Shown: in pieces, positions 25,433 through 58,677 of the stretch | Position numbering within the stretch: the stretch's first letter is position 1 | How the letters are laid out: every line of letters starts with the position of its first letter | NCBI GenBank assembly: GCA_964012805.1 | Contig: CAXGUD010000005.1 | Location: 78,325-142,324 of the forward strand | Origin: an uncultured Bacteriovoracaceae bacterium | GTDB lineage: Bacteria > Bdellovibrionota > Bacteriovoracia > Bacteriovoracales > Bacteriovoracaceae | DNA length: 64,000 nucleotides | Direction of reading: 5' to 3' | Position numbers and translations under genes: made by a program | Notes under the pieces: model-generated | The model's input: the letters and a program-made list of their open reading frames with translations, nothing else | Told to the model about the DNA's origin: nothing | The model's database searches: none

Positions 25433-25531
25433 AACACGGCCATAAATTTTTATTTTAAATATAGAATTTACAAAATATTAAATTTAAAATCATTACAGTT
25501 TTTGAATTGAAATGCTTTAGAAGGAGTCAAA

Positions 25532-25777: not shown

Positions 25778-25822
25778 TTAGAGCTTCCCTTACTTCAGAA
25801 GGACACAATAAAGGCTAACTTC

Positions 25823-29177: not shown

Positions 29178-29240
29178 CCAATCCTCTGGATGACACAAAA
29201 AAATTATTATCAATAATTTAATAAAAGGACCTATAGATCT

Positions 29241-30932: not shown

Positions 30933-31915
30933 ATATTCTCGTTACTGGTGGGGGGGGCTTTCTTGGAAAGTCTATCATCAATTTACTTATTGATAAAAAA
31001 TATAAAGTTACGAATTTTTCTAGATCTCGTTATCAAGAACTTGAAAAAAAAGGAGTCATATGCCTCCAAGGGGATATAAAAAACTCCCAGGATGTATTAA
31101 AGGCTTTTGAGGGACAAGATGCTGTTATTCACGTGGCTTCTAAAGTTGGCATGTGGGGTAAATGGAGTGACTTTTACGATACAAACGTAACTGGGACAGA
31201 AAACGTCATTAATGCATGTTTAAAGCATCAAATCAAGAAGCTTGTTTACACAAGTTCGCCTAGCGTAGTATTTGGGAAAGATAATCTACAAAATGCAGAT
31301 GAATCGACTCCCTATCCAGACAAATACTTTGGGCTTTATGCTCACTCCAAAGCCATCGCAGAAAAAAAAGTTTTGGAGTCAAACAACTCTCCAAAACTTT
31401 TAACAACCTCCCTAAGACCTCACCTTATTTTTGGTGAAAAAGACCCTAACTTAATCCCAAGGCTTGTAAAAGCTGCAAGGGAGGGAAAGTTGAAGCAAGT
31501 AGGCTCTGGACAAAACCTAGTTGACGTTATCTACGTCGAAAATGCTGCTTATGCTCATATATTGGCCCTTGAGAAGCTTTCTACTTCTTCACCTATTTGC
31601 GGCAAAGCTTACTTTCTTGGCCAAGAGGCCCCTGTAAACCTATGGCAATTTATTAACAAAATCCTTAATATTCATGGCCTCCCGCCAATAAAAAAAACAA
31701 TTTCTTTTAAAAAAGCCTACTTCCTTGGTGCTTTTATTGAAAAAACACTAGGCTTACTGAGGAAATACTCTGTTGACCCACCGATGACAAGATTTGTAGC
31801 ACTTCAACTAGGTAAGTCTCATTACTTTTCTCACAAGAATGCCTTTATGGAGTTGGGTTACAAGCCCCTACTTTCAACAGACAAGGCCCTTGAACGCCTG
31901 AGTACAACTCAATAA
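30929..31915 (+). CDS. oleD: OleD 2-alkyl-3-oxoalkanoate reductase (3-beta-HSD-like SDR)
   Basis: TGGGGFLG, YTSSPSVV, YAHSK (YxxxK) and LRPHLIFG motifs. ATGA overlap with oleC. Confidence 0.9.
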   Translation: MNILVTGGGGFLGKSIINLLIDKKYKVTNFSRSRYQELEKKGVICLQGDIKNSQDVLKAFEGQDAVIHVASKVGMWGKWSDFYDTNVTGTENVINACLKHQIKKLVYTSSPSVVFGKDNLQNADESTPYPDKYFGLYAHSKAIAEKKVLESNNSPKLLTTSLRPHLIFGEKDPNLIPRLVKAAREGKLKQVGSGQNLVDVIYVENAAYAHILALEKLSTSSPICGKAYFLGQEAPVNLWQFINKILNIHGLPPIKKTISFKKAYFLGAFIEKTLGLLRKYSVDPPMTRFVALQLGKSHYFSHKNAFMELGYKPLLSTDKALERLSTTQ

Positions 31916-34956: not shown

Positions 34957-37900
34957 CTAGAGCGGCTTCACCTTAGCATTGGAACTAAAGGTTAAGCAAA
35001 AAGATGTTCCCTCATTCATGGTCGTCTCAATATTTAAATCTGCTCCTAATAAATTTAATGATTTTTGCACAACATCCATCCCGATACCTCTTCCTGAAAT
35101 CTCAGTTACATTTTCTTTTGTACTAACGCTTGGAAGAAAAATGAGATTAATCTTTTCTTTCGTACTCATTACTTCTATTTTATCTTTTTCAACAAGACCT
35201 AACTTTACACCTTTTTCAGTAAGCTTATTGATGTCTATACCGACTCCATCATCTTTAATCGTAATCGAAATATTATCACCATCTAATTGTTGGCATAAGA
35301 TCTCTATAAGACCTACTTCATTTTTTCCTTTGATTAATCTATCATTCGGTTTTTCAATCCCATGATCTACAGCATTTCTAATAAGGTGGACGATAGCTTC
35401 CTGTAAAATGTTTAAAGAATCTCTATCTAAAGAACATTCTTCACCGACTAAAGAAAACTTAATTTTTTTTCCTAAGTTTTCAGAAATTTCTTTAATAACT
35501 TTCTGGTATCGAAATAAAGAAAATTTGACTGGAAGATAAAGTAATTTATCAAACATTTCATTTAATATATTTTCTTCATTTTTAATAGAAGGGATACTTA
35601 TAATCGTTTTTTTTACGTAATCATAATTTTCTACTAATATTTCATGTACTTTCGGTTTAAGATCTGAGGCATTATAATCTTCTATATCTATATAGTTTTT
35701 AAATAGCTTCAGAAGATCAATATTTTTAGAATAAAAATGCCAAGAGAAATCTTTTTTCAACATGAATTCTTTCAGATTATTTACAAAAGAATAATTTCCT
35801 AATGAAAAAAGCCTTTCAATTTTATCAAATGCTTCAAGAAGGTCGAAACGAAATAATTCATAATAAATTTCATTAATAAAGTTTTTAAATTCTTGGTCAC
35901 CAAAAATTAAATTTATCACAGACTTAATATCTATTTTCAAAGTTTTAGATATAATACCAAACAAGTCATTTCTATCTAATCCATTTTTTTCCAAAATATT
36001 AAGTGTTTGCCATATAAAAGTCTTTTCAAATCTCGAAACATTAGGATCTATAGGTTCGTTATTTAAAAATGATTCAATAAAAAAGACCCTCTTCCCAGGT
36101 GAAATATTTTTATAAAGGTCAAGCTGAAATAGAATAATAATAAATTTCCAGATCTCATTAAGAGTAAAAATAATCTTTTGATGCTTTAATTCGTTATCTA
36201 AAGTTTTCGATTCTATCAAATCATAGAGATATCTAAATAAAGCAGGAAAAAAATCTAATTTAATACTTAAGGTATTTGAGTGAATATGGTAAACATTTTG
36301 AATAATATCATTGCTATTAATATAACTTTTATTAATTAACTTTTCTGAAATAATTGTGATATCCTTAATTAAGATAGACCAGAAATCAGTATTTAATTCT
36401 AAATTGTGAAATTGCGATGACTTTACAAAAATATTTTTACATATTTTTCTTATTTCACCTATGGGGTCAATAAAATATTCTTGATATTGTTCCTTAGAAT
36501 AATCTTCATTATCTTTAAAGTAAGAAATACCACTTTCTAAATGGTGAATTTTCTGAGATAGCTCCTTTTCATCAATTCCTCTTGCAAGACCTTTCATTGA
36601 ATGGCTTATATTTTCGATTTCTTCTATAATTTCAGTTCGATCGCTATTATTTTTAATAGAATCAATAGTTTCGATCTGAAAATCATCATAGTTTCCTATA
36701 TTTGAGTTTTCCCGTTTTGATAACTTAGAAACCAAATACTCAAGACTTTTTAGTAATTCGTGCAACTGGGATTTAAATTTGAGATCTTCTTTAAACTCTA
36801 AAGAAAAGACTTCTTTGGCGGAATTAATATATTGGCTAACTTGACCTTGAAGAGCATACAGTTCCTGAACTAAAGAATTTGTTCCTTCATAATCATGATT
36901 CTTTTTATAACCTAGGTTTTCATTATAATTATCAGTAATAAATTTAGAAAGAATCGTTTCAATTTGATGAGCACTAGACGAAATATAACTTAAACCATAA
37001 ACTCTAGCATTACCCTTAATTGTGTGGAGTTGCCTAAACAAAATAGGCAAATCTGAAACTTTTTCTGAGCTTTCGACCTGACTTCTAATTTTTTTGGCAA
37101 TAAATATCGAGTCCATGGTCATTTTATTTGTGGTACTAAAGAATTCACTTAAATCTTCTTTTTTATTTAAAGCAAGTTCCTGAAGGATTTGGATATTTTT
37201 CATCGAATTTTTTCTCTGCTCTTCAACCTCTTTTTCAAGTTTTTCAATTTCAGTTATATCTTCAACGACAAACATTATACTTTGAATTAAATTAGATTTA
37301 TCAAACAAAGGATTATAAGCTATTTTTAGTATTTTTTGATGCTCTAGTGTTTCTGAATTATAAATGACTCGGTTTGGAAAGTGGTCCTTAACCATTTCCC
37401 ACTGTAGATCATCAGATCCAAATAATATGCTTAGAGAAAATTTGATCGTAGAATAAACTTCTGAGTCTTTGTCAATACCAATAAACACATTATTAAATAA
37501 ATCATCTCCAACTATATCGTTACCAAAAATGATTTCTGAATATTTAGAAACAGGTTTTTGAACTATACCTTCATTCGATATTGTAAACACGGCTTGTCTC
37601 ATATTATCTAAAAGATTTGAAATATCATCTAGGGCCATCGAAAGTTCTTTCGTTCTTTCTTTTACTTCATCCTCTAAATTAATATTTGCATCTTCAAGTA
37701 GCTTATTGGCCTTTAGATTTTCTTCTAGAAGACTATTAATAATATCAGCAAGACCTAAGGAAAGAAGAATAACTTCAAAAACACCTCCTATTTGAAAAGC
37801 ATTTAAAAAAATAAACCAAGGAGGCAAAAATCCATTCATTTGTCCTATTTGAAGGATCCCTCCTCCAGTTATAAAAATAAATGCCAAAAGATAATACTTA

Positions 37901-38901
37901 GCAGGCCGATATTCTAACTTTAATTTATAAGCTCCCACTAGAATAAAAAAGGTGAAACCCAAAACTAAGAAAAAATAAAATGGGGTTAATAGATATTTAT
38001 AAAAAGGAAAAAAGGATCCTACTAAAAAGCCAATGGCTAAATAAGTTAAAATTATAAAAAACTTATGTATTACTGGTGTGGACTTATTAACCCCTAAATA
38101 ATTTATAGTAAAAAAGATAAGAAAAAGAGCAGTTAGAGAAGCTCTCAAAAGAAAACCTTCATTTTGAAACCAAATCCAATCTGGGTATAGAAATTGAAAT
38201 CCCAAACCATTAGATGCCATATTTAGTAATGTGTATGAAGATATATATAAGATATAATAAAGGTAGCTTACACTTTTTGTAGATAAGTAAACAAAAAGGT
38301 TATAAAAAATCATAACAAACATAATTCCGTAAAAGAATCCAAATCCGGCCATCTTAAAATTCTCTTTCTCTGAAAATGCTATCGGCGAGTAAAGCTTAAG
38401 TGGGATTTGAATACCATCATCAGATTTAATTTTAAGATAATAAGTTGTTCCCTTTTCAGGTCTAATATTAAAAACAAAATTTCTGTTTTTAACATCTCTT
38501 GTTGAAAAGGCCCTTCGATCTCCTGTCTTAGTAACGGCTTTCCAATTTCCTGAAATTTTTTTATAGAGCTCAACGTAATCGCACCAAACTTGTTCAAATG
38601 CCAGTAACCAGACATTAGAAGGATGATTTTTATTTTCTATTTTGAGCCTGATCCAAAAAGATGATCTTGAAATTCCAATATTTGGTATTTTTGTTTTACT
38701 AGAAATGTACTTGGAGCGAAATTTCTTTTTTGTAACATCATTAATTGTCAGTTTATTAGAAGAATCCTCAAAAATTGAAATTTCATAACCTACATCATAA
38801 ACATCTTTTCCATCTAAAAGAATTACTTTTTGCTCAGCGAGTAAATTGCTGGAAAATAAACAAAAAGTGATTATAAATATAAGGTAAGACCTAAAGTTCA
38901 T
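34957..38901 (-). CDS. 7TM-DISM sensor fused to Hpt(s) and a CheA-type HATPase; no CheW domain
   Basis: 7TMR-DISMED2 (SSFWIRL, TGDRRAF..R), 7TM block (FFYGIMFVMIFYNL), coiled coil, PAS-like segment, FRQLHTIKG and ISHSMKG Hpt motifs, HLIRNAVDHGIE, DDGVG and SGRGIGMDVV. Confidence 0.85.
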   Translation of the reverse strand: MNFRSYLIFIITFCLFSSNLLAEQKVILLDGKDVYDVGYEISIFEDSSNKLTINDVTKKKFRSKYISSKTKIPNIGISRSSFWIRLKIENKNHPSNVWLLAFEQVWCDYVELYKKISGNWKAVTKTGDRRAFSTRDVKNRNFVFNIRPEKGTTYYLKIKSDDGIQIPLKLYSPIAFSEKENFKMAGFGFFYGIMFVMIFYNLFVYLSTKSVSYLYYILYISSYTLLNMASNGLGFQFLYPDWIWFQNEGFLLRASLTALFLIFFTINYLGVNKSTPVIHKFFIILTYLAIGFLVGSFFPFYKYLLTPFYFFLVLGFTFFILVGAYKLKLEYRPAKYYLLAFIFITGGGILQIGQMNGFLPPWFIFLNAFQIGGVFEVILLSLGLADIINSLLEENLKANKLLEDANINLEDEVKERTKELSMALDDISNLLDNMRQAVFTISNEGIVQKPVSKYSEIIFGNDIVGDDLFNNVFIGIDKDSEVYSTIKFSLSILFGSDDLQWEMVKDHFPNRVIYNSETLEHQKILKIAYNPLFDKSNLIQSIMFVVEDITEIEKLEKEVEEQRKNSMKNIQILQELALNKKEDLSEFFSTTNKMTMDSIFIAKKIRSQVESSEKVSDLPILFRQLHTIKGNARVYGLSYISSSAHQIETILSKFITDNYNENLGYKKNHDYEGTNSLVQELYALQGQVSQYINSAKEVFSLEFKEDLKFKSQLHELLKSLEYLVSKLSKRENSNIGNYDDFQIETIDSIKNNSDRTEIIEEIENISHSMKGLARGIDEKELSQKIHHLESGISYFKDNEDYSKEQYQEYFIDPIGEIRKICKNIFVKSSQFHNLELNTDFWSILIKDITIISEKLINKSYINSNDIIQNVYHIHSNTLSIKLDFFPALFRYLYDLIESKTLDNELKHQKIIFTLNEIWKFIIILFQLDLYKNISPGKRVFFIESFLNNEPIDPNVSRFEKTFIWQTLNILEKNGLDRNDLFGIISKTLKIDIKSVINLIFGDQEFKNFINEIYYELFRFDLLEAFDKIERLFSLGNYSFVNNLKEFMLKKDFSWHFYSKNIDLLKLFKNYIDIEDYNASDLKPKVHEILVENYDYVKKTIISIPSIKNEENILNEMFDKLLYLPVKFSLFRYQKVIKEISENLGKKIKFSLVGEECSLDRDSLNILQEAIVHLIRNAVDHGIEKPNDRLIKGKNEVGLIEILCQQLDGDNISITIKDDGVGIDINKLTEKGVKLGLVEKDKIEVMSTKEKINLIFLPSVSTKENVTEISGRGIGMDVVQKSLNLLGADLNIETTMNEGTSFCLTFSSNAKVKPL

Positions 38902-41394: not shown

Positions 41395-44232
41395 TCAAGC
41401 AGGTTTTGAACTAAGAACACCTTGAGTTGTAGAATCTCGTGGAATCTTAATGATCCAGCAGAAAGAAATCATGTCACCATTATTTCTATCATCGTTTAAA
41501 AACTCAATTTCAATATCTCCGCCCATCCCTTTTAAAAATGATTTCACTGCGTCCATACCAACACCACGACCAGATACATCCGTAACCTCTTTTGCCGTTG
41601 AAACACCGGACAAGAAAACCATATTTGCTAGGGTTTGAGGGTCTTCATTACCACTCTCTTTAAGTTGACCTGATTCAATAGCCTTTTCTTTAATTTTTTG
41701 TATATTAAGGCCTTGACCGTCATCTTTAACAATGATTTTGTTAAAGTTTTCCTCTTCAGATCCTGTGATTGTTATTTTCCCTTTTGAATTCTTTCCTTTT
41801 TTCTTCCTTTCCTCAGGAGTTTCTATGCCATGATCTATCGAATTCCTAACAATATGAGTAAAAATATCTTTCATCGCTGAAGATTTCTCATAATTGAATA
41901 GGATTCCACCGTCATCTAATACAACTTCTGGTACTTCTTTTTCTAAATCCTCTGCAAGTGACTCTAGTGACTTGATTAAATTGGACAATATTTGTTCTAA
42001 ATTGACTGCCGATAAATTAAATAGTCTTTGAGAAACCACCTGTAAATCTTGTCGAATTTTATTAGGGTTGTCTGGATTTGCAGCATTAACTAAGTTTAAG
42101 ATTTCATTAATATCTTCTTTAATTTTTCCACTCCCTTCTGATGCGCTACCCCCATCTCCTTTTCCTCTGCCTAACACGTTATCATGAACATCCTCATATA
42201 TTTTTAACGCATCTTCCAAGTCTTCTAGGTGTAAAATCAGTAAACTAGGGTCCCACTCCTTCTTAAGACCTTTTCTAAGCTGATCATACTCTTGCTCTGC
42301 TTCATGAGCTGCATTAGATACATAAACGAAGTCATGAGTTCTAGCATTTCCTTTTATCGTATGCATATTTCTAAATAATTGCTCCATAACTCCAATAGGA
42401 GGCAACTCACCTTTCTCTTTTATTAACTCTGTATTCTCTTTTATGTATTTATTTGCAGAACCTATAAATTCGCCAAAGTCATCTGGTAACACTTTAAGAA
42501 TTTGTCCAATCATTTCTATCTTTTTCTTTTGCTCCTCACTTTCAGCGGTAAGGGCCTTAATTTTTGTTATATCCCTGATACACACTAGTATTTTTTCTAA
42601 TGTATCTTCATCGTCAACAGAGTGGATCGGGGACCACAACAGCTCTAAATATTTCTCTGAATCAGAATTAGGATTCTTAATACAGATTTCCTTTATAAGA
42701 AGCTCTTCGTTAACCTCATAGTTAAGCATGTCTTCACCAATAAAGTTTTCTACTGTCGTTCTAACTTGGGATATTTGATCACTGCTTAAAGTTGAGTTTC
42801 CAAAAAGGAACTCAATAGCATTTTTATCCGCAATATCCTTAGTTTCGAAAATTTCTTCTAAATAAGATGAGTATTCTTTGTGAATAATATTACCTTTAAT
42901 TACAGTAAGAACCCCTTGCGGTAAATTATGGAGCATCGTATTTATATCTTCATTTTTTTCAGCTAACTCTCTTGTCCTTTCTTTAACCTTTTCCTCCAAG
43001 CCATCATTTAACGCTTTTAAATCAACTAGAAGATTTTGGTTTTGTATGTACGTGTTTGTGTAGTTATTTATTGCGATTATTACAATGGCAAAAGTGGATA
43101 CTCCCATACCCAAATACACTGTACCGACAGTTGGAAGGAGACCTTTGGAATTCATCAAATCATTTAAAACAGTTAAGACTAAAAAAGTTTCTCCAAAGAA
43201 AAATATCGTACCACCTTTCTTGCCCTCTCTCATGGCCTTGAAGGTCAGGTAAATCATCTTAACTGTGATGACAAGGACAATGGCAAATAAAATATTTCGA
43301 TTTAAATCAAACATTTTCCCGTGATAATTGAAGGAAAGATATATAAATAACACAGCAATAATAGATAAAACAAACGTATAAAAGCTCTCCCAAAATTTAT
43401 GGAGACGAGCAAAGAACTGAGTATATTTATAATGCATCAAAAGAGTTATGGCGATACCAACGTAATGAAGAATAAAAGTTTGCCTGGGTTCGAAAAACTT
43501 TTGAACAAGATCAATAGGAAATACCAAAAAGGGAAAAGTTCCCAGACCAACCATTCCTGGAAGAAAGTAAAAGTCGTTCTTTGTTCTAAAGTAAACAGTT
43601 AGAAAGAAGATACCTGCGGCAGCTAGTATAATTCCAAAATAACCGCGAAATTCACCGCCATAGATATGCCAAAAAGCAATGCTTATGTCTTCTTTATCAA
43701 ACTTTCTTAATTCAAATGGTCTTTGATAAACACCAGTCATTAAAATAGTATCTACTCTAAAGGCAATGAGGTGATTCTTTTTTGTTACTTTAAATCTTAC
43801 CGGAATTGCTTGTACTGAGTAGAATCTCTCATAAGCGTTTTGCCCTGACCTGGTATAAATTTGTTTTCCATCTAAATAAACATTCATTTCACCCATATAG
43901 GTATCAACGAGGAAAACGACTTCTTCTCCAATTAAGTTTTCAGAAAATTCAAAGTTTCCTCTATACCAACCTACTTCATAAATTTCTCCATCATTATATG
44001 CTGGCTTCCATGAACCAGGTGTTTTTATTCTTTTCCATGAGTCTGTATTTACCCCTATATTTTTATTTGAAGGTTTATCATCCCTGGTAAAAAGCCAATT
44101 ACCAGCAAGAGGAATAGGTTTGTCCAAAGAGTTTACTTTGAACAAGCAGGAATCACATTCACTCGCCTCTATACCAATACTGAAAACAAAAATGTAAGTT
44201 AAAACTAATATCAGTTTAAATACTTTATTCAT
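41395..44232 (-). CDS. Membrane sensor (sugar-binding jelly-roll + 7TM) fused to Hpt and a CheA-type HATPase; no CheW domain
   Basis: Signal peptide, LAGNWLF...PGSW...GWYR galactose-binding-like domain, 7 TM segments, FRNMHTIKGNA Hpt, HIVRNSIDHGIE, DDGQG and SGRGVGMDAV. Confidence 0.85.
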   Translation of the reverse strand: MNKVFKLILVLTYIFVFSIGIEASECDSCLFKVNSLDKPIPLAGNWLFTRDDKPSNKNIGVNTDSWKRIKTPGSWKPAYNDGEIYEVGWYRGNFEFSENLIGEEVVFLVDTYMGEMNVYLDGKQIYTRSGQNAYERFYSVQAIPVRFKVTKKNHLIAFRVDTILMTGVYQRPFELRKFDKEDISIAFWHIYGGEFRGYFGIILAAAGIFFLTVYFRTKNDFYFLPGMVGLGTFPFLVFPIDLVQKFFEPRQTFILHYVGIAITLLMHYKYTQFFARLHKFWESFYTFVLSIIAVLFIYLSFNYHGKMFDLNRNILFAIVLVITVKMIYLTFKAMREGKKGGTIFFFGETFLVLTVLNDLMNSKGLLPTVGTVYLGMGVSTFAIVIIAINNYTNTYIQNQNLLVDLKALNDGLEEKVKERTRELAEKNEDINTMLHNLPQGVLTVIKGNIIHKEYSSYLEEIFETKDIADKNAIEFLFGNSTLSSDQISQVRTTVENFIGEDMLNYEVNEELLIKEICIKNPNSDSEKYLELLWSPIHSVDDEDTLEKILVCIRDITKIKALTAESEEQKKKIEMIGQILKVLPDDFGEFIGSANKYIKENTELIKEKGELPPIGVMEQLFRNMHTIKGNARTHDFVYVSNAAHEAEQEYDQLRKGLKKEWDPSLLILHLEDLEDALKIYEDVHDNVLGRGKGDGGSASEGSGKIKEDINEILNLVNAANPDNPNKIRQDLQVVSQRLFNLSAVNLEQILSNLIKSLESLAEDLEKEVPEVVLDDGGILFNYEKSSAMKDIFTHIVRNSIDHGIETPEERKKKGKNSKGKITITGSEEENFNKIIVKDDGQGLNIQKIKEKAIESGQLKESGNEDPQTLANMVFLSGVSTAKEVTDVSGRGVGMDAVKSFLKGMGGDIEIEFLNDDRNNGDMISFCWIIKIPRDSTTQGVLSSKPA

Positions 44233-46160: not shown

Positions 46161-46724
46161 ATGATTAATAATTATTTATACCATCCTAAAGAAATTTCTT
46201 TTTGTGGTTATTCTGGATCAGGCAAAACGACCCTTATATGCACAATCTTAGATGAGCTAAACTCAGAATATAAAATTGGTTACATAAAGCATGATGCGCA
46301 TAATTTTCAAATGGATAAACCTGGAAAAGACACATACGAAGCTCGAAAATCTGGTGCAAATACAGTTTTTATATCAAACGAATCTGAGTATGCACTCTTA
46401 GGAAACAGCCCAATATCCCAAGAAATTATTAAAAGAATATTTCAAGATTTTGACTTTGTAATTGCTGAAGGACATAAGAGAACTCCTCTTCCAAAAATTC
46501 TTATGCTTAATGATCAAGAAGATATTATTGCATTAATTGAAAGTATTAACATCGAAGGCCTTTTAGGTTTTTGTGGAAAGGAATCTTTCTTAGAACCTAC
46601 GATTTTAAAAAAAATTCCAAATAACTATAATTCGTTAAAATCACTGCCTTATTTCCAAAGAGATGATATAAAAAATATTTCTAGATTTATTCTAAAAAAA
46701 TTTCAACCACTAATTACAAAATAA
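46161..46724 (+). CDS. mobB: Molybdopterin-guanine dinucleotide biosynthesis protein B
   Basis: GYSGSGKTT P-loop, IKHDAH..DKPGKD and AEGHK motifs. Confidence 0.85.
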   Translation: MINNYLYHPKEISFCGYSGSGKTTLICTILDELNSEYKIGYIKHDAHNFQMDKPGKDTYEARKSGANTVFISNESEYALLGNSPISQEIIKRIFQDFDFVIAEGHKRTPLPKILMLNDQEDIIALIESINIEGLLGFCGKESFLEPTILKKIPNNYNSLKSLPYFQRDDIKNISRFILKKFQPLITK

Positions 46725-46774
46725 GGTTTTAATCTTAACCACAATGTTTAAAATTAATTTACTTCATCTAAAAA

Positions 46775-47524
46775 TTATTTGTAATTGAAATAAGAATCAC
46801 CAAAAAAAGGCTTTAAAGAACCGCCCTCAGGCTCTCTCCAATAAAGAAGAGTTGGACCGCTTGCCTTGATTAATTGTAAATCTTTATCGTAGTATAGATA
46901 AAGAGACTCCGTAAACAAGCGTATTAAGAAACTAGAAGGCTCAAAAAGAATACAAAGAGATGCTCTCTTATAACATCTTGGATCTTCTTTTGTCTTAAGA
47001 CTAAAAGTAAACGAGATATTAGTTTGTAAATTAGGTATCACAAGTTCAACTTCTTGAGGCCCCTTTAGGATTGCAGAATAGTTGTCCCGTACATAATCGA
47101 GAATCATTGGTGGCAGAATAAAGTTCTTTCCCCACTTTAATTTATTAATTGTACTTTCTTTTCCTTCTCTATATAGCATCTCTAAATGACTATTTTTTTT
47201 TAAAGAAAATTTTGCATGCTGATCTACCTGAAATTGTCCTAGCTCATATCTGAAAGAACCTTTTTCATTTAAAATTATTTTTTCCTCAGCAATAACTTGC
47301 CCCTCTTTATTTTTGAAATAGATTACAAATGAGCTTTCCTTTTCTTTTTTTATCAACCATTTCTCAAAATGAAAAATAATGTTATTTTTGATAAGTTGAG
47401 TTTCCCCCCTTTTAAATAAATCTGCCTTCATTAAGAGAGACTTCTGAGAAGAATTAGAATAAGATTTAAATTGGAGAGAAAAAAAAATAACCATGACGAA
47501 AACTATTTTTTTCAACATTGACAC
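46775..47524 (-). CDS. Exported hypothetical protein
   Basis: 249-aa ORF with a signal peptide and beta-rich composition. No family recognised. Confidence 0.65.
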   Translation of the reverse strand: MSMLKKIVFVMVIFFSLQFKSYSNSSQKSLLMKADLFKRGETQLIKNNIIFHFEKWLIKKEKESSFVIYFKNKEGQVIAEEKIILNEKGSFRYELGQFQVDQHAKFSLKKNSHLEMLYREGKESTINKLKWGKNFILPPMILDYVRDNYSAILKGPQEVELVIPNLQTNISFTFSLKTKEDPRCYKRASLCILFEPSSFLIRLFTESLYLYYDKDLQLIKASGPTLLYWREPEGGSLKPFFGDSYFNYK

Positions 47525-47571
47525 GGGATACCTTTTATTCGCTTTAATAATACGATTTAATTAGAATCAAT

Positions 47572-48708
47572 ATGCCTTCACATATTAAACCAACCATTCA
47601 TCAGTTTCAAATAATACGTCCCAAGTTTGTGCTAAAACAGGCAGATTCTATTGATTGGCTTAGCAAAGCTCATTCACTAGTTGAAAAAGATGAGCTAGAT
47701 TCTCCAAAGGCACTGCACCTTAAAAGAAGGTATTCACATTACGGGTGTTCCGAAAATAAAATATCTACTAGAGGTACTGAAATAGAAGATTTCACACATC
47801 AGCAATGGGATAAAATGGAACTATTCCATGTTAATAATCCGAAAAAAATCAATCTTGATGAAAGAATGCGTTTTTATGATGAAAAAGTTTCTTCGGTTTT
47901 TGAAAAGCTCTCTCTAATAGATTCGCCCAATGAACTTACTCCCCAAAACATACTCCATGTAACATGTACAGGGTATTTATCTCCTAGCCCAGCACAAAAC
48001 TGGGTACATCAACAAAAATGGGGTAAACATTGCCAAGTAATTCATCTTTACCATATGGGTTGTTATGCTTCCATCCCAGCAATTCGAGTTGCGAAAGCTC
48101 TGGTTCAAGAAAAAGGAGGGAGCACTCTCATTAAACATAATGAACTATGCACACTTCACTTTAGCCCATGGGACTCTTCTCCTGAACAATTGGTTATCCA
48201 AAGCCTTTTCTCAGATGGTCATATAGGTTATTTGGTAACTAAACCAACAGAGCCAATTTCAGGACTTGAGATCCTATCAGATAGAGAAATGATTATTCCA
48301 AATAGCAATAAAGATATGTCATGGTCACCAGGTACTCATGGCTTTTCCATGAACCTCTCTCCTTTAGTTCCTAAAAAAATTACAGAGCACCTACCTTATT
48401 TTTTAAGAGAATGGCTTACGCTAGAGAAATATGACTTTGAAACTATTTCAAAAGAGGCTTTTTTTGCTATACATCCAGGAGGACCTAAAATAATTCGCAA
48501 TTTACAAGAAGCCCTTAACCTCCAACAATGGCAAATTTCCCACTCCACTAGAATTCTTCATCGCTATGGAAATATGAGCTCCGCTACACTTCCCCATATA
48601 TGGGAAAGAATGCTTCACTCCAATGAGCTTCCCAAAGGCTCTCTCATCATATCTCTTGCATTTGGCCCAGGTATTTCAATACATGGAACCCTATTTAGAA
48701 AGGTATGA
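47572..48708 (+). CDS. Type III polyketide synthase (chalcone synthase family)
   Basis: HVTCTGY..P, HMGCYAS (Cys), ELCTLH, LFSDG, AIHPGGP (His), GNMSSAT (Asn) and AFGPG motifs. Confidence 0.9.
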   Translation: MPSHIKPTIHQFQIIRPKFVLKQADSIDWLSKAHSLVEKDELDSPKALHLKRRYSHYGCSENKISTRGTEIEDFTHQQWDKMELFHVNNPKKINLDERMRFYDEKVSSVFEKLSLIDSPNELTPQNILHVTCTGYLSPSPAQNWVHQQKWGKHCQVIHLYHMGCYASIPAIRVAKALVQEKGGSTLIKHNELCTLHFSPWDSSPEQLVIQSLFSDGHIGYLVTKPTEPISGLEILSDREMIIPNSNKDMSWSPGTHGFSMNLSPLVPKKITEHLPYFLREWLTLEKYDFETISKEAFFAIHPGGPKIIRNLQEALNLQQWQISHSTRILHRYGNMSSATLPHIWERMLHSNELPKGSLIISLAFGPGISIHGTLFRKV

Positions 48709-49460
48709 CTTCTATGAAAAAACCGGAAGTTAATAACTCAATTTACTACCATCTAGGTAGAAAATGGTATGAAGCTGACGACGATCCGATAGCACTCCTA
48801 AGAGCTGAAGCTCGCTTTAGAAATCCATGGATTTTCAAACAAATGATATCTCAAGGAATGAAACAAGGTAAATCAAAACTTTTAGATATTGGGTGCGGAG
48901 GGGGCTTTCTTTCAAATTCGTTTATAAAAAAAGGAGTTCAAGTTACAGGAATTGATATCTCTGAGGACGCAATAAGTATTGCTAAGCACTATGATACAAC
49001 AAAAAAAGTCCATTACTTAAAAGGAGATGCTTATAACCTTCCTTTTCTAGAAAGTAGTTTCGACTTTGTTTGTGCAATGGATTTTTTAGAGCATGTTAAT
49101 AGCCCTGAAAAAGTAATTCAAGAAGCTTCAAGAGTATTAAAACCTGGTGGATCTTTCTTTTTCTATACTTTCAATAGAAATTTTTTGTCATGGCTTCTCA
49201 TTATAAAAGGTGTTGAACTTATTTTGAAAAAAACACCTCGAAACCTTCACGTTTATCATCTTTTTTTAAAACCCAAAGAAGTTCAAAACTATTGCAATAA
49301 TCACAATCTTAAAATAAAAAATTTCCAAGGAGTTGGCCCCAAAGTTTTCGATTCATCTTTCTTAAAGTTCATTTTAAAAAGAAGGGTCCCTTCAAACTTT
49401 TCTTTTACTTTTAAGAATTCATTAAAAATAGGTTACCTAGGTCATGCTATTAAAGAATGA
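48705..49460 (+). CDS. UbiG-like SAM-dependent O-methyltransferase
   Basis: LDIGCGGG, GIDIS, DFLEHV, RVLKPGG and TFNR motifs. ATGA overlap with the PKS gene. Confidence 0.85.
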   Translation: MTSMKKPEVNNSIYYHLGRKWYEADDDPIALLRAEARFRNPWIFKQMISQGMKQGKSKLLDIGCGGGFLSNSFIKKGVQVTGIDISEDAISIAKHYDTTKKVHYLKGDAYNLPFLESSFDFVCAMDFLEHVNSPEKVIQEASRVLKPGGSFFFYTFNRNFLSWLLIIKGVELILKKTPRNLHVYHLFLKPKEVQNYCNNHNLKIKNFQGVGPKVFDSSFLKFILKRRVPSNFSFTFKNSLKIGYLGHAIKE

Positions 49461-50337
49461 GGAGTATACGCAAAAATTCTTATTTTTTTCAAAATCTACA
49501 TGGGTTCATTTAAGGATTCCTTATTCTCTATGTCTTTCCCCAGTCTTTTTTTTTTCTTTTTCAGAAATAAATGTCGGTAATAATGAAGAAAAACTCTTTC
49601 TCATTTTTATTATTTTGCACCTTTTTTTATATCCCGCAAGCCAAGCATATAACAGCTATTATGACAATGACTCTCAAAGTATTGGAGGAGTAGAAGAACC
49701 TCCCAAAGTAAATAAAGACCTTTTGTTAACTTCTTACATTTTTGATTGTTTAGCTATATCGCTATCATTATTTTATATTGGTTACTTATTTTTTATGGCC
49801 ACTTTAGTTTGTTCCATTCTTTCTAAAGCCTATAGCCACCCTAGAATTAGATTGAAAAAAAATCCATTTTTAAGCTGGTTAACTGTTTCAATCTTTCAAG
49901 GCCCTTTTATTTATTTAGCCATATTCTTATCCTTTTCATCTTCATGGCCAATTGACCTTAAACAACAATGGCCTGCCGCTCTTTCAACTGCTTTTCTTTT
50001 TGGAGGAGCCTATCCTATGACACAAATTTTTCAACATGAAGAAGACAGAAAAAGAGGAGATGAGACTTTAAGTTTAAAGCTAGGTATCAAAGGGACATTT
50101 CTCTTTAGTGCAATGAGTTTCCTAATAGGCACTCTTCTTCTATTTTATTACCAGTTCATTAATAAAAAATTTGAAGTTTTTTATATTTTTCCCCTATTTA
50201 TGCTTCCGACTTTTATCTATTTTAGTTATTGGTTTTTTTTATGCTTGAGAAATGAGTCAGAAGTGAACTTTAGAAATTGTATGAAACTTAATATCATTAG
50301 CACATTATGCTTTTGTTCTTTTTTTATTTTTATCTAA
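49444..50337 (+). CDS. UbiA-family prenyltransferase
   Basis: Polytopic membrane protein with NSYYDND (first Asp-rich motif), AYSHPRIRLK and QHEEDRKRGD (second motif). Overlaps the methyltransferase gene. Confidence 0.82.
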   Translation: MLLKNEEYTQKFLFFSKSTWVHLRIPYSLCLSPVFFFSFSEINVGNNEEKLFLIFIILHLFLYPASQAYNSYYDNDSQSIGGVEEPPKVNKDLLLTSYIFDCLAISLSLFYIGYLFFMATLVCSILSKAYSHPRIRLKKNPFLSWLTVSIFQGPFIYLAIFLSFSSSWPIDLKQQWPAALSTAFLFGGAYPMTQIFQHEEDRKRGDETLSLKLGIKGTFLFSAMSFLIGTLLLFYYQFINKKFEVFYIFPLFMLPTFIYFSYWFFLCLRNESEVNFRNCMKLNIISTLCFCSFFIFI

Positions 50338-52641
50338 TCTTAATAATATAGCCGGTAATAAAACTAGGTCAGTAATAAGAGCTGTAATTAAAACCAAAAC
50401 GGAAAGAATACCAAAATTATAATTAGGAACAAAATCGGCAAAAGCTAGTACACCAAAACCTGCAACCAAAATAATCGTTGTAAATAAAAGTGCGGGACCG
50501 GTAAAGGTTAAAACCTGTGCCAAAGAGTATTCTAAATCATTTGATTTTTTTAACCTTCTGTTTAAATTAGTTAAGAAATGAATGGTATCGTCAACAGCTA
50601 TCCCCAAACAAACACTTGTAACCAAAGCCGTTCCTAAATCAATATTTTTTCCCATTAATTGCATCGCACCAGCGCCCAAAACCAGAGGATACACATTTGG
50701 TATCAAGCTAAGAAAGCCAAATTTAAATGACTTAAAGATAATTATTAGTAAAATCGTTACAAGTACTAAAGCCAAGGTAATTGAGGTAAAAAATGTTTTA
50801 ACAACATAGCCATCCATCTTTTGATAAAGAGGCAACTTCCCAGTTGCATAGACATTAAGTCCCAGATCCTTGGCTTTTTTCTCGATTTTATCAATAGTCT
50901 CTAGACTCGTTTTTGAATCTAAGAGGTCCCACAAAATACTCAACCTAATTTCTGAATTATCTAAAGTTACGCGATTATTGATATCCATTCCTTGAGGTAA
51001 ACTCATCGTATAAAGAAAAAGTTGTTCCGCAACTCCTTTTTTAGTGTCAGGAACTTTATAGTATTCCTGACTACCTCCATGAAGAGATCTATTCATTGAT
51101 TTTAAGATATTAACAATAGAAACGCTTTTATTTACTCTTGGGTTTGAATCAATCCAGTTCTGTAAACTTTCGACTTTTTTTAAAAAATCTGGTGACTTAA
51201 TACCTTCAGGCTTACCGCTTTTGATAACAATTTCAGGGCCACCTGTCCCCCCTAATTTCTTCAAGACAAAATCATTCGCTTTTTTAAGGGGAACATTATC
51301 ACTGAAGTAATCATATGGATTTGCATTAACTTCATTTTTATACGCAAGATATAAGCTACTTCCAAATACAAAAATAAAGATAGCAATAATAGCAATATCA
51401 AACTTTTTATAAAAAGAGACAGCTCTTAAACTCCACTCCTTTGGTAAATTGCTAGCCGTTTCTAAGTTATCACTTTTTTTAACTTTAACATTTATAGGCA
51501 GTAAAGAGAGTAATGGAGCCATCAAAAGAAAAGTAAAAATAAGCCCCATCTGAGTTCCTATCCCAGCCAAAAGCCCTAAGTTTTTAATAGGAATGAGGTT
51601 TGTATTAATAAGACTAAAAAAACCAATAGAGGTGCTAAAACTTGTCATAAATATTGGGAAAAAATTTTTAATAATTGCTTTATAAACGGCTTCTTTTCTT
51701 TCAACTCCACCTGATCTCAATTGAAAAAAAGTCACCATCAGATGAACTGAGTCGGCCATACAAATAGCAATGAGAATATTTGGAATCATAGTCGTAAGGT
51801 TATTTAGCTTAAGACCTAAAAATCCTGAAACCCCAAAAGTTGTCATAATCGAAGCAAAAATAATGAGGAAAGGTAATAAAATACCAGAGACTCTTTTAAA
51901 AATAAAAAGAAGAAAAAGAATGAGAGAAAAAAACAAAAATGGAAGCATCTTTGTTAAATCGCTTAGGGCCACTTCGCTAAATGTATTTCCAATTGCACCA
52001 GAACCAGTTATGTAAAATTTATAGTCGTTATCCTTCTTAAACTTTTCAAGAAGCTTTCTCGTTCCTTCCATAAGCTCTTTATAATTTGGACCTTTTCCAA
52101 AAACTGGTTTGATCCTAGCATAAATAAGTGCAGTATTTAGATCTTTAGTTACCAGAAAACCCGGAATTACTTCATCTTTTAAAGCTATTTTTTTTCTTTC
52201 TTCTAAAAATTCTTTCTCAAAACGGTCTTCTTCAGGAATAAAATCTTCCACAATGATTTCATCGCCCTTAGAGTGGGTCCATTGGAAGTTTGTTAGTGAT
52301 TCTACTCTGATGACTTGTTTAACTAGCCACATTTCCTCAGTAAATGATCGTAACATTTTAAGGGTTTTATTATTAAAAACGCCACTCTTTGTATCGACAA
52401 CAATAACCATATTGTCATCATTTCCAAACTTCCTTTCAAAAGCATCAAATTGAACAAGGTTTTGGTCTTTTTCATCAAACCAAACTCTATAAGAAAAATC
52501 GACTTCTATGTGCTTACCACCGTAAGAAAGACCGAAAAGAATAATAAATCCCAAAATAATGGAGGTCCAAGGGCGATAAACTGAGAACCTGGCAATTTTG
52601 CAAGTCAAACTCTTTTTGTCGCTACCTAAAAAGTCTTCCAT
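50305..52641 (-). CDS. MMPL/RND-family lipid exporter
   Basis: Two repeats of TM + periplasmic domain + 5 TM, with AICMADSVH and GIAVDDTIH motifs. Confidence 0.9.
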   Translation of the reverse strand: MEDFLGSDKKSLTCKIARFSVYRPWTSIILGFIILFGLSYGGKHIEVDFSYRVWFDEKDQNLVQFDAFERKFGNDDNMVIVVDTKSGVFNNKTLKMLRSFTEEMWLVKQVIRVESLTNFQWTHSKGDEIIVEDFIPEEDRFEKEFLEERKKIALKDEVIPGFLVTKDLNTALIYARIKPVFGKGPNYKELMEGTRKLLEKFKKDNDYKFYITGSGAIGNTFSEVALSDLTKMLPFLFFSLILFLLFIFKRVSGILLPFLIIFASIMTTFGVSGFLGLKLNNLTTMIPNILIAICMADSVHLMVTFFQLRSGGVERKEAVYKAIIKNFFPIFMTSFSTSIGFFSLINTNLIPIKNLGLLAGIGTQMGLIFTFLLMAPLLSLLPINVKVKKSDNLETASNLPKEWSLRAVSFYKKFDIAIIAIFIFVFGSSLYLAYKNEVNANPYDYFSDNVPLKKANDFVLKKLGGTGGPEIVIKSGKPEGIKSPDFLKKVESLQNWIDSNPRVNKSVSIVNILKSMNRSLHGGSQEYYKVPDTKKGVAEQLFLYTMSLPQGMDINNRVTLDNSEIRLSILWDLLDSKTSLETIDKIEKKAKDLGLNVYATGKLPLYQKMDGYVVKTFFTSITLALVLVTILLIIIFKSFKFGFLSLIPNVYPLVLGAGAMQLMGKNIDLGTALVTSVCLGIAVDDTIHFLTNLNRRLKKSNDLEYSLAQVLTFTGPALLFTTIILVAGFGVLAFADFVPNYNFGILSVLVLITALITDLVLLPAILLRLDKNKKRTKA

Positions 52642-55026: not shown

Positions 55027-58000
55027 CTAGTTTAGCTTGCCCCTTAACCAATAAGCATAGAATTCACTTTGAGTCATACCTGAACTAAGCATCAAGCTCA
55101 TCAGAGGTCCATACACTTTCGAAGAGCCTACTTGACCTAGAGAATTAGAGTTGATTCTTGAGTCACCATCTTCATCACCGATCCGAAAACCATCTATTCT
55201 TGAAATGATGAAGTAGTTTTCACTGCCACCTAACAATTTTTTAAAACCTTCAAGATTAAGCCACCTATTGGCCATCGAAAGGACAGAGCGTGTATATTGG
55301 CCTTGCCGCTTGTAATCCTTATTTTCCATATGTTTTTTTATTTTTTTAAAGTGGCTTAACATTCTGGCCCGCTTTAACAGTTTTGATTTCCCCTTTACAT
55401 GGCGCTTAATAATTTTCTTAAAGGTCCACTTATCCATTTTTGAAAGGTTCTTGATTCCTTCAGAATAAATATAGTGGTCTATTCCAATATTATAAAGGAA
55501 AATTTTTCTCGTTTGATTTAAAACTAATTCAGGATAAAAGTTCGTTTTATATTGTTCATTTAACCTTCTAAGTATTTTTTCAGCTCTTCTTTTAGACAAA
55601 GACCATCCTCTATGACTTTTTGATATCTTAACAAAGGGCTCCTCTAAGCCTCCTTTTCTTTTCAAACCCACTCTACGCTTATTTTTTATTTCTCCTTCAT
55701 AAGAAACATTATAAACGACTTGCATTCCCCCAATACTATCGCCCGGTGCACCTGCTGAAATATTCTTCATTTGAATATCCCATTCAGTATATTTATCAAA
55801 AACACCATTTATTGAATCTATCGCATACTCAGAAACATTAACTCCTTTTCTAACAACCTGAGAAGTTTTATAAAATCGTTTTTTAGCTCCCTGAGGGTGC
55901 GTGACCTCTATTTCAGTTTTACTTTTTAAACCTGCATATTTAAAAAACATAAAACTAGCTTTTTTAAATCCCTCTTTAAAAGAGTGAGTGACATGGTAAG
56001 GTGTTGTAACAGATTTAACCCCCTCCATGCTATTTTTAAGAAAAAGTCCCTTCATTGCATGAATAGACTTTAAAATATCTGGGTTTTCCTCTTCACTTTC
56101 TTGTAAATTCAAAGAGTAAAACCTCCCCCTCGTTTTTCCCTTATTCCACTTATAAGATAAGCTTAGAAGAGGAACAACGGCTTTTGCATTGAATGACATT
56201 ACAACACCATGCACGTTGCCCAAGTCTTTATAAACTTGAAAAGTATCTTCATCTTTTCTGTAAATATGGAGTCTTGAAACTACCAAATTTGTTTGTCCTG
56301 CATTAATCCCTACTCGAGCAATATTTCCAAAGCCTGTACCAACACCCCCGTTAGCGCCTATTCCAATATTATCAGTAATAATTAAGGAGTCTCCTATCGT
56401 AAAACTTTCTTTTAGCTTTTTAACGACCTCATCAATTTTAGTTTGCCTCTCCTCTTCAGAAAGCTCTTTTAAATCAAATCTCAGCATTTCATCTAATATC
56501 TTTCCTTGCTTTCTTTTAAAATAAGGAACAATCATATTTTTAAATGGATATTTAAAAGATGCCTTAAAACTTTTAATCGGTCTTAAGTGAGAGTAACTTC
56601 TCGTATAAAAAGCACGCCCTCCTCCTGAGACGCTAAGTGCTGCCGGGAGACCATAAACGATTGCTTGAGCACCGATATCAACGCTAAAATTAAGAGTATC
56701 AGCCATTTGAACTTTATTATCAGTTCCCAAATAGCTACCAATAATCACATCTCTAGAAGTACCAATATTTGCTCCAAACGTAGGATAGACAAATGTACCT
56801 AGAGGGATTTCTTGAGGAACCCCTGTCTGAATGTAATTCATAAACGCTTCTGAATATAATTCTTCCTGTTTCTTTTTAAAAGCCCTCTCTAAAAAACTCT
56901 GATTGTTCAGAAACTTAGTACTAACATAATTGGTTATTCCCTCTAAAGCTGTAGATACGACCTTAGAGCCAATGAAATGACCTATTTCACTTTTTGATAG
57001 TGGTGACTCTGGGTCTCCAAAGGAGTACCTTGAAGCATAACCATCCCAATTCTCCTTAAATAATTTTCCATTATCTAGATACCTACCATAAGAGATAGTT
57101 GGATTAAATGCTAACTTCTCTGCATTGATTTTGAGAATTTCAATAAGCTGATTTCTTCTTGAAATTAGTTTTTCATTCAGCAAAAGTCCTACTTCTTTTG
57201 GGAAATAAGACATACGCACAATTTCTTTCCAATCACTTCTAGTTAACTTTGAAATTCGACGTGTCATCCATTTGGCATCACCATAAGTCGTAGAAAAATT
57301 TTCGGCACTATCAAAGTCCATTTTAAATTGTTTATTGATAATTCTTCCCGCGTGCCAAGGAAACATATTCACACTTTCAGGAACTTCAACTAATGAATAA
57401 GGAATAAGAAGAGAGTTCAATAACCTACGGCCTTGAATAACAGATGGTGGTAAATAACCAAGAGAAAGATTATAATAATGGTCCTGTGAACTCATAGCGA
57501 CAACATCTTGAAGCTCAATTTCTTCAGCATCAACTAAGGGGCCATCGAAGCTTAGTGCTTTTTCCGATGCCCATTTTTGATAACTATTTAATTTACAATT
57601 ATTTTGAATTAAAGAAGCACCTCTCTCTCGTGATTTTTCCTCAATTTCTAAACACATCTGACTATAAACAGACTTAAACCAAAACCCCTCATGTCCTCTA
57701 ATTTTTCTAAATACTTGAGTTCGGCTTTCATCACATGGTCTTTCAATAATTTGAGACCCTGCTCTTCGCCAACTTCTTTTTTTAACACTCAAACACTTTC
57801 CAGAAATTACAGAGCGAATCCGAACAGAATCTTCGTGATCATCTTGCTTTTCCAAGACCCATGTTGTCCTATGCGGGTTTTCACATGACTCCTGAACTAG
57901 CTCTCCAGCTCTGTTTAAGTCCTGGCTTAAACAAAGGTCTGAATATTTAACCTTAAGCATAATTTTTTCATTATCTTTAAAAGACCTAAAATTAGCTCTT

Positions 58001-58677
58001 TCTTCATCGCTTTCAATTCTATCCTCACCTCTCAAATGATCCCTATAATTTTTAACCCACCTTCCAGGGTCACCAAAAGTGCTTTCAGATAATTCGTTAA
58101 AAAAGATTTCTTTTTCAAATGGGTTGGAGAATTTAAGAGTTGTTTTCTTTAAATATTTTACAGCAGGAACTTGATAACCTAATTTTCTTAATAAGTTTTT
58201 TCTTAAAAGCAGGTTATGGATTGTTTTACTCATCATAATAACAAAAGTTTCCACTCCTCCTTCACTTGTTTCCTGTTCTATTGTAAACCTAAAGTTACCA
58301 GACCTTGATGGTACCGTAGAAGTATACCATATAGGCTCTTCTACTTCTAAGGGAAGGTCATCAAGACTTTCATCTAAAAAGAATGGTTTTTTCTTTTTCC
58401 AAAGAACAGTTGTTTCATCAGGATCAAGCTTTGAAATGTCAAAATTCTGACTTTCTCTTCTAAGCTTATCAGCTTCATCTGGTAAAAGAAGTTGTCCTTT
58501 ATAAAATAAATCAGTTGCTGGCCTCTTACCGTAATCCAAAGGAATCAAACCATCTGAATAATGTACAGTTGAGATAGTATCATTCCCTAAAGAAACGTGA
58601 TTATGAACAATCAAAATTAATATGGTCACTATATACAAAGAAAATTTAAACGATTGTTTAGTTACCCATTTACTCAC
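55027..58677 (-). CDS. Large exported protein with an internal ricin-B (beta-trefoil) lectin domain
   Basis: Signal peptide. Three S.KCL...Q..C.....Q.W/F-like repeats at about 57570-57965. The remainder is unassigned. Confidence 0.7.
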   Translation of the reverse strand: MSKWVTKQSFKFSLYIVTILILIVHNHVSLGNDTISTVHYSDGLIPLDYGKRPATDLFYKGQLLLPDEADKLRRESQNFDISKLDPDETTVLWKKKKPFFLDESLDDLPLEVEEPIWYTSTVPSRSGNFRFTIEQETSEGGVETFVIMMSKTIHNLLLRKNLLRKLGYQVPAVKYLKKTTLKFSNPFEKEIFFNELSESTFGDPGRWVKNYRDHLRGEDRIESDEERANFRSFKDNEKIMLKVKYSDLCLSQDLNRAGELVQESCENPHRTTWVLEKQDDHEDSVRIRSVISGKCLSVKKRSWRRAGSQIIERPCDESRTQVFRKIRGHEGFWFKSVYSQMCLEIEEKSRERGASLIQNNCKLNSYQKWASEKALSFDGPLVDAEEIELQDVVAMSSQDHYYNLSLGYLPPSVIQGRRLLNSLLIPYSLVEVPESVNMFPWHAGRIINKQFKMDFDSAENFSTTYGDAKWMTRRISKLTRSDWKEIVRMSYFPKEVGLLLNEKLISRRNQLIEILKINAEKLAFNPTISYGRYLDNGKLFKENWDGYASRYSFGDPESPLSKSEIGHFIGSKVVSTALEGITNYVSTKFLNNQSFLERAFKKKQEELYSEAFMNYIQTGVPQEIPLGTFVYPTFGANIGTSRDVIIGSYLGTDNKVQMADTLNFSVDIGAQAIVYGLPAALSVSGGGRAFYTRSYSHLRPIKSFKASFKYPFKNMIVPYFKRKQGKILDEMLRFDLKELSEEERQTKIDEVVKKLKESFTIGDSLIITDNIGIGANGGVGTGFGNIARVGINAGQTNLVVSRLHIYRKDEDTFQVYKDLGNVHGVVMSFNAKAVVPLLSLSYKWNKGKTRGRFYSLNLQESEEENPDILKSIHAMKGLFLKNSMEGVKSVTTPYHVTHSFKEGFKKASFMFFKYAGLKSKTEIEVTHPQGAKKRFYKTSQVVRKGVNVSEYAIDSINGVFDKYTEWDIQMKNISAGAPGDSIGGMQVVYNVSYEGEIKNKRRVGLKRKGGLEEPFVKISKSHRGWSLSKRRAEKILRRLNEQYKTNFYPELVLNQTRKIFLYNIGIDHYIYSEGIKNLSKMDKWTFKKIIKRHVKGKSKLLKRARMLSHFKKIKKHMENKDYKRQGQYTRSVLSMANRWLNLEGFKKLLGGSENYFIISRIDGFRIGDEDGDSRINSNSLGQVGSSKVYGPLMSLMLSSGMTQSEFYAYWLRGKLN

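Follow-up and report, generated by a model that had tools for sequence, protein, structure and literature searches.

Which molecule is made by a type III polyketide synthase (PKS), a methyltransferase and a UbiA-family prenyltransferase that are encoded side by side, and how did the three genes come together? The question is raised by a compact locus in a 64,000-nucleotide stretch of DNA (hereafter the window; contig CAXGUD010000005.1, positions 78,325 to 142,324 of the forward strand) from an uncultured Bacteriovoracaceae bacterium of the phylum Bdellovibrionota (GCA_964012805.1). Comparison of the genes with their relatives indicates that the cluster is a hybrid of two separate gene cassettes, and that the triad is the reduced form of a four-gene cluster.

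Results

Three intact genes under selection

The triad lies on the forward strand. It comprises a gene for a PKS of the ArsB/ArsC lineage, a predicted alkylresorcinol synthase (47572..48708, 378 residues), a gene for a UbiG-like class I S-adenosylmethionine (SAM) methyltransferase, a predicted phenol O-methyltransferase (48705..49460, 251 residues), and a gene for a membrane prenyltransferase from an uncharacterised, type III PKS-associated UbiA subfamily (49444..50337, 297 residues). All three genes are intact and under purifying selection: none of the open reading frames (ORFs) has an internal stop, and ten pairwise comparisons gave dN/dS values of 0.02-0.13 for PKS, methyltransferase and UbiA. 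A preliminary description of this DNA had called the three genes overlapping. This holds for the 17-nt overlap of the methyltransferase and UbiA genes, whereas the 4-nt overlap of the PKS and methyltransferase genes hinges on the start chosen for the latter: relatives start at a Met matching residue 4, which leaves a short gap, and the true start here may likewise be Met4.

The genome carrying the window (G000) is 100% complete by markers, in 130 contigs, and those of its two congeners, G001 and G002, are 72% and 68% complete. Close homologues carry the family label Halobacteriovoraceae, and the named datasets containing the window DNA are marine or seawater metagenomes. No clear step in the GC profile was seen at the cluster (0.30-0.34, with 0.28-0.36 in the neighbours), and a scan of the locus for promoters and terminators gave the same counts as shuffled sequence (15 versus 15.0 and 2 versus 2.6, respectively). 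One RNA run yielded no contigs over 46500-49500, which speaks neither for nor against expression.

Two candidate parent cassettes

The PKS and the methyltransferase have their counterparts in a cassette of the same phylum. The PKS lineage occurs in 91 of 401 sampled Bdellovibrionota genomes. Among 36 such loci outside the genus, which are the best-scoring ones returned and not a random draw, a membrane ORF of about 150 residues comes next after the PKS gene in every case, followed within the fetched flank by a UbiG-like methyltransferase gene in 33. Identity to the window proteins is 35-45% for the PKSs and 38-52% for the methyltransferases. This uncharacterised Bdellovibrionota/Chlamydiota cassette therefore shares two lineages with the window locus but differs from it by the small membrane protein, which the window locus lacks, and by UbiA, which the window locus adds.

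The small protein (for example L130:5726-6184) shows two repeats with paired invariant Glu/His/Asp motifs, which suggest a possible di-metal site. It has no match in Pfam and none under E 0.001 in Foldseek; a fold search returned generic helical bundles (best Z 9.7), and Atlas gave unnamed clusters only. Searches of G000, G001 and G002 did not detect it, while two positive controls gave E < 1e-56, and in G001 and G002 the PKS and methyltransferase genes abut. Other family members (L018-L024) have a further type III PKS, more distant, whose neighbours are small membrane and FAD (flavin adenine dinucleotide) oxidoreductase-like genes, an arrangement that looks srsABC-like by eye.

The UbiA has its relatives elsewhere. 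Its subfamily, which runs to 377 clusters when grouped at 50% identity and taken up to E 1e-30, is rare among Bdellovibrionota (6 of the 401 sampled genomes), and the next homologues beyond close relatives are mostly from Bacteroidota, at 43-51% identity. Around the best 80 UbiA loci in GTDB, which are 40-48% identical to the window UbiA, an adjacent type III PKS is present in 60, a methyltransferase in 56 and an FAD oxidoreductase in 44; in 17 of the remaining 20, a type III PKS is encoded elsewhere in the genome. Across 201 taxon-sampled Bacteroidia genomes, 48 have both UbiA and PKS, 4 UbiA only, 12 PKS only and 137 neither (45, 4, 12 and 137 when G517 and G595, unpublished, and the centre genome are set aside), and the two genes lie within 3 kb of each other in 44 of the 48. 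This uncharacterised Bacteroidota cassette of UbiA, type III PKS, methyltransferase and FAD oxidoreductase resembles the window locus in placing the UbiA subfamily beside a type III PKS plus a methyltransferase. By contrast, its PKS is only 24-32% identical to that of the window, its methyltransferase is of another lineage, and its FAD enzyme is absent from the window locus; no close homologue of that enzyme was found (best E 1e-14).

Within Bdellovibrionota, four of the five other genomes with UbiA contain the window PKS lineage, as against 86 of the 395 without UbiA. In these four, the ArsC-type operon is on a different contig; in the fifth, only part of a different PKS is present, where a contig ends. 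A quick UbiA tree with long outgroup branches, built from alternate loci among the 80 from GTDB plus L053, recovered the query clade (five rows) with a support of 100; it does not resolve the position of this clade among the Bacteroidota and does not give the direction of transfer.

A four-gene form and fused relatives

A synteny survey, as the preliminary description had proposed, found the triad in all three genomes of the genus and a four-gene form at L179:731-3977. There, a PKS, the small His/Glu protein, a UbiG-like methyltransferase and UbiA are encoded together, with 57-63% identity to the window. Among eight metagenome loci, the methyltransferase gene is directly upstream of UbiA in seven and the PKS gene is reached in six; two of the eight are nearly the same as the window and one nearly the same as G001; a further locus, a distant fragment of 1.6 kb, carries UbiA alone. 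A tree of PKS and methyltransferase (14 rows) pairs four-gene L179 with three-gene G002 as sister lineages (97.6/100). The topology with a single loss was rejected by the approximately unbiased (p 0.005) and Kishino-Hasegawa (p 0.023) tests, which used 5000 replicates where the program advises more. The cluster would have arisen when a UbiA that is associated with PKSs, and has its closest relatives in Bacteroidota, joined the Bdellovibrionota PKS-small protein-UbiG cassette; on the simplest reading, the small protein was apparently lost twice afterwards. One loss and one regain is a possible alternative.

Gene fusions tie UbiA to the same partners. Nine of 150 UbiA representatives exceed 400 residues and are fusions. 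P0271, with six cluster members and named from Dyadobacter, joins UbiA to a type III PKS; P0349 joins the small protein to UbiA and P0341 joins UbiA to a YdbH-like domain, each in a single record. Six have a C-terminal domain homologous to the ORF upstream of the window PKS (E 5e-44 to 1e-9, four of them also by direct BLAST). A gene-calling artefact could be behind the single-record fusions and is unlikely for the repeated ones. The idea that the three genes form one pathway to a prenylated, methylated polyketide aromatic, already put forward in the preliminary description, gains support from the ties of this UbiA subfamily to type III PKSs, seen as co-occurrence, co-localisation and fusion.

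A divergent upstream partner

The upstream ORF (46775..47524, reverse strand) encodes 249 residues with a hydrophobic N-terminus and is predicted to be an exported lipid carrier. It has no Pfam match; Atlas gave a weak DUF3108 lead, and its Atlas neighbours are named hypothetical or putative lipoprotein-sorting proteins. G387 likewise fuses UbiA to this family, and in G230 and G200 the homologue is again the divergent neighbour of UbiA. Because its homologues adjoin or are fused to the UbiA subfamily, we count this ORF into the predicted UbiA system, and we infer for it the role of an exported carrier. In three other Bdellovibrionota, UbiA adjoins YceI-like genes (L123:4339-4941, L122:3308-4048 and L124:4641-5303), and L122 has a LolA-like gene too; such neighbours are consistent with lipid handling.

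On the other side, a convergent MMPL/RND transporter gene (50305..52641, reverse strand) overlaps the UbiA stop by 33 nt. It is a neighbour within the genus only, and we left it out of the cluster because it is absent at that place in L179.

Predicted activities of the three enzymes

The PKS matches PF02797 with 69 bits (cut-off 27) and PF00195 also above its cut-off. The Cys-His-Asn triad that the preliminary description had noticed is present as C164/H301/N334 and is invariant across 14 aligned PKSs. The best PDB matches are 3VS9 (E 6e-52) and 3VS8 (E 4e-50), ahead of a first non-ArsC entry at 5e-29. According to PMC6274091, these structures are ArsC G284W and wild-type ArsC, respectively; ArsC makes pyrones, and a Trp at ArsB position 281 (ArsC 284) gives resorcinols in ArsB. 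In the alignment, window residue W251 falls on the Trp of 3VS9, at the position of ArsB Trp281. This residue would fit aldol closure by the window enzyme, though many bacterial type III PKSs have it. ArsB/ArsC of Azotobacter vinelandii are the nearest solved relatives, with ArsB carrying a Trp at this position, but the window locus has a single PKS, without an adjoining ArsA-type fatty acid synthase, followed by a methyltransferase and UbiA.

The methyltransferase scores 146 bits on the UbiG model TIGR01983 (cut-off 103), and its SAM motif I, also pointed out earlier, begins at residue 59. It is the only UbiG match above cut-off in its genome, in which no ubi pathway was found.

The prenyltransferase matches PF01040 with 60.5 bits (cut-off 34.2). 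Its predicted model (pLDDT 92) superposes on AfUbiA (4TQ4) with Z 23.3 and a root-mean-square deviation of 3.1 Å over 265 residues, and the structural matches overall favour AfUbiA/ApUbiA. A PDB search with the single sequence gave only spurious cyclin matches; with the UbiA profile, the only match was chlorophyll synthase (E 0.012, marginal), which has a Ser at the Q197 position. As described in PMC4106721, the consensus motifs of UbiA enzymes are NDXXDXXXD and DXXXD; in AfUbiA, R22, N68, D72 and K146 are required for GPP (geranyl diphosphate) binding, which their mutation abolishes, whereas D198 and D202 have milder effects there, yet are needed in E. coli MenA. The preliminary description had credited the window UbiA with both Asp-rich motifs, which holds in part. 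Motif I (N70-S-Y-Y-D74-N-D76-S-Q78, or NxxxDxD) keeps the N70 and D74 core but lacks the second and last Asp of the consensus, and motif II (Q197-H-E-E-D201) reads QxxxD instead of DxxxD.

Mapped by motif register, the AfUbiA residues R22, N68, D72 and K146 correspond to R24, N70, D74 and K138. The window UbiA also retains Y130/S131 and D201, and has a Gln at the AfUbiA D198 position. Among 135 family representatives (those of 250-340 residues among the 150 listed), R24, N70, D74, Y130, S131 and K138 are 94-100% conserved, Q197 is 99% and Q194 100% conserved. Since the binding residues are kept while motif II is QxxxD, the enzyme likely binds a prenyl diphosphate, and its handling of the acceptor may differ from that of UbiA and MenA.

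Quinone and isoprenoid genes of the genome

The genome has six PF01040 genes, among them menA and heme o synthase, and none of the six scores as a 4-hydroxybenzoate prenyltransferase. Contig C32 carries a block of polyprenyl synthase, menG (also menG/ubiE), menF, menD, menA and menC-like genes, and menB is on C14, the search having covered men genes other than menE and menH. UbiD was not found in the genome, nor was any Ubi hydroxylase above cut-off; an unassigned FAD monooxygenase-like gene on C15 reaches 94 bits, below cut-off. The window UbiA has no TIGR01474 match, and it scores 22 bits on MenA models with cut-offs of 277 and 555. Because the men pathway lies elsewhere and no ubi pathway was found, the window methyltransferase and UbiA are not the ordinary quinone enzymes of this genome, which addresses the men and ubi part of the pathway check suggested in the preliminary description. 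By eye, two unassigned UbiA-like genes flank a membrane protein gene on C1 (L003/L006), and a further UbiA-like gene lies between PEP-utilising-like and AMP-binding-like genes on C102 (L005).

A mevalonate-type block at 227-5776 of the window encodes MVK, MVD, a GYDIA GHMP kinase, HMGR and IDI-2, each near or below cut-off, together a coherent set. The earlier suggestion that the prenyl donor comes from these genes stands in so far as they are in the window. However, they are about 42 kb from the triad and, with no Dxr found in the genome, are the housekeeping isoprenoid route that feeds prenyl diphosphate to everything; we rejected them as cluster-specific genes, and their presence is no sign of this pathway.

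Other parts of the window hold further features. Genes for FabF-like and FAD oxidoreductase proteins, then for ACP_syn_III, alpha/beta hydrolase, AMP-binding and 3Beta_HSD proteins, lie at 24188-31915, a set that presumably resembles the oleABCD olefin cluster. Two large membrane-anchored proteins (34957-38901 and 41395-44232) have, by eye, CheA-like HPt and kinase domains at their ends and are encoded near a lone response regulator. A 1216-residue protein at 55027-58677 contains ricin-type beta-trefoil lectin repeats and otherwise has no Pfam match.

Discussion

According to Awakawa (2011), agqABCD of Actinoplanes missouriensis reportedly produces alkyl-O-dihydrogeranyl-methoxyhydroquinones. 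The combination of a type III PKS, a methyltransferase and a UbiA-like prenyltransferase in one cluster is already known from agqABCD, and by analogy of gene content, not of Agq sequences, the window locus appears to be Agq-type logic reassembled from other parts. It differs from agqABCD in its ArsB/ArsC-like PKS, its UbiG-like methyltransferase, its linked exported partner and the lack of a hydroxylase gene: no ring hydroxylase ORF was found in 44.4-55 kb of the window. Published work describes AgqA as making alkylresorcinols that are subsequently prenylated and hydroxylated (PMC10896814), AgqD as a UbiA-like enzyme that O-prenylates an alkyl-methoxyhydroquinone (PMC3227686), and agq-orthologous clusters as common in rare actinomycetes, that of Micromonospora comprising UbiA, a methyltransferase, an acyl-CoA dehydrogenase and a PKS (PMC7692728, PMC7587189). 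The srsABC genes of Streptomyces griseus and pkqABC of Mycobacterium smegmatis and Streptomyces MNU77 make alkylquinones (PMC9927152, PMC13730376). They also combine a type III PKS with a methyltransferase that tailors an alkylresorcinol, but have no prenyltransferase and use an ICMT-type methyltransferase and an FAD hydroxylase, whereas the window has a class I methyltransferase, UbiA and no adjacent FAD gene. A hierridin-like cyanobacterial cluster with a prenyltransferase (PMC8086630) and an antiSMASH mention of T3PKS in Bdellovibrio (PMC12843806) are also on record. In the open literature, with subscription journals mostly outside the search, we found no paper on the triad or on the Bacteroidota cassette, only on actinobacterial clusters. 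New in this locus are the way two cassettes are joined, an intermediate with four genes, the apparent repeated loss of the small protein, and the partner predicted to be exported.

On the strength of the gene set, we consider it rather likely that the product is a prenylated O-methyl alkylresorcinol, a phenolic membrane lipid with one fatty and one prenyl tail; this is favoured over a quinone because the cluster has no ring hydroxylase, and a role as respiratory quinone is improbable for the lipid. In the proposed route, three malonyl units would be added by the PKS to a long-chain acyl primer, and aldol condensation would close the ring to give a 5-alkylresorcinol. Next, the UbiG-like enzyme would methylate a ring hydroxyl oxygen, and UbiA would attach a polyprenyl chain drawn from the general, mevalonate-derived pool, perhaps onto oxygen, as AgqD does, rather than onto carbon. 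Chlorophyll synthase, an O-prenylating member of the UbiA superfamily, likewise has no Asp at the Q197 position. Export through the periplasm would fall to the divergent 249-residue protein.

Several observations weigh against this proposal. The usual substrate of UbiG is an ortho-diol, which a plain resorcinol is not. The linked triad was seen only in one genus and its close metagenomic relatives, and none of the five other Bdellovibrionota UbiAs is linked to a PKS. The Bacteroidia co-occurrence was counted among kin, so that these genomes are not independent and the Fisher value is inflated, and 4 of the 52 sampled Bacteroidia with UbiA have no type III PKS. At L053:5995-8253 (G413, titled Syntrophales), UbiA is two genes from a UbiG-like methyltransferase and no type III PKS was found in the genome; this UbiA may use another acceptor. 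In addition, W251 is invariant in all 14 aligned PKSs, unrelated lineages included, and is weakly diagnostic. Finally, Q197 sits where, according to PMC4106721, loss of the Asp nearly abolishes the function of E. coli MenA.

Other products come into question. An accessory polyketide quinone or hydroquinone would arise if a hydroxylase encoded elsewhere, or the small protein in the four-gene relatives, acted on the ring, giving an alkyl-prenyl-methoxy(hydro)quinone beside menaquinone. A methyltransferase above the UbiG cut-off, the FAD oxidoreductase in 44 of the best 80 GTDB UbiA loci, the invariant His/Glu/Asp pairs of the small protein, which could bind metal, and the FAD monooxygenase-like gene on C15 would fit such a molecule, and polyketide quinones coexist with menaquinone in Streptomyces, as stated in PMC9927152. 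Against it stand the lack of a hydroxylase in the cluster and of the small protein in the three genus genomes, the failure to find a close homologue of the Bacteroidota FAD enzyme, a complete-looking men route, and UbiA fusions to the exported partner and to YdbH-like domains, which point to the envelope and not to respiration. We regard this outcome as unlikely, and the chorismate-independent redox lipid considered in the preliminary description is weakened by the same men route and missing ring hydroxylase. Because Trp251 is common to all the aligned PKSs, an alkylpyrone or an alkylresorcylic acid is also conceivable, with UbiA forming a prenyl ether or ester or catalysing a non-canonical reaction reflected in QxxxD. 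Chlorophyll synthase being the sole PDB sequence match of the UbiA profile, as well as the near-invariance of Q194 and Q197, would suit this; so would the pyrones of ArsC, the nearest solved relative, and those that CepA yields alongside resorcinols according to PMC7064976. Yet a Trp where ArsB has one would favour aldol closure, the chlorophyll synthase match is marginal, and the structural matches favour AfUbiA/ApUbiA, so that we hold a pyrone or acid to be slightly less likely again.

Two further explanations separate the genes from one another. UbiA and the upstream ORF might be a module for another aromatic acceptor, between whose genes the PKS and methyltransferase landed by chance in one genus; G230 and G200, where the two are divergent neighbours without a PKS, and G413 could be read so. 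This is quite improbable in view of the co-occurrence in 48 of 52 UbiA-bearing Bacteroidia and the adjacency in 44 of 48, the PKS-UbiA and small protein-UbiA fusions, and the overlapping reading frames retained at 60% protein identity. That the methyltransferase and UbiA serve ordinary ubiquinone or menaquinone synthesis is suggested by the TIGR01983 score and by MenA or UbiA labels on homologues in some databases; we give it hardly any weight, given the 22 bits on MenA models, the lack of a TIGR01474 match, the true menA and menG/ubiE on C32, and a genome in which neither UbiD nor an above-cut-off Ubi hydroxylase was found.

Returning to the prenylated O-methyl alkylresorcinol, a broader reading can be offered tentatively, with considerable doubt. 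The QxxxD UbiA subfamily would be a dedicated prenyltransferase of type III PKS lipids that became linked, on separate occasions, to two PKS/methyltransferase lineages unrelated to each other. Together with the exported partner, it would make and deliver an unisolated class of two-tailed (alkyl and polyprenyl) phenolic envelope lipids, both in some predatory bacteria and in about a quarter of the Bacteroidia sampled. In the four-gene relatives, a new small membrane metallo-hydroxylase would turn this lipid into a chorismate-independent mimic of ubiquinone.

For the organism itself, the triad does not indicate a new main respiratory quinone. Its interest lies in offering a small test, open to expression, of a UbiA subfamily that is widespread and uncharacterised, has a changed motif II and occurs in 52 of the 201 sampled Bacteroidia, and a comparison of the three-gene form with the four-gene L179 would reveal the role of the unclassified small membrane protein.

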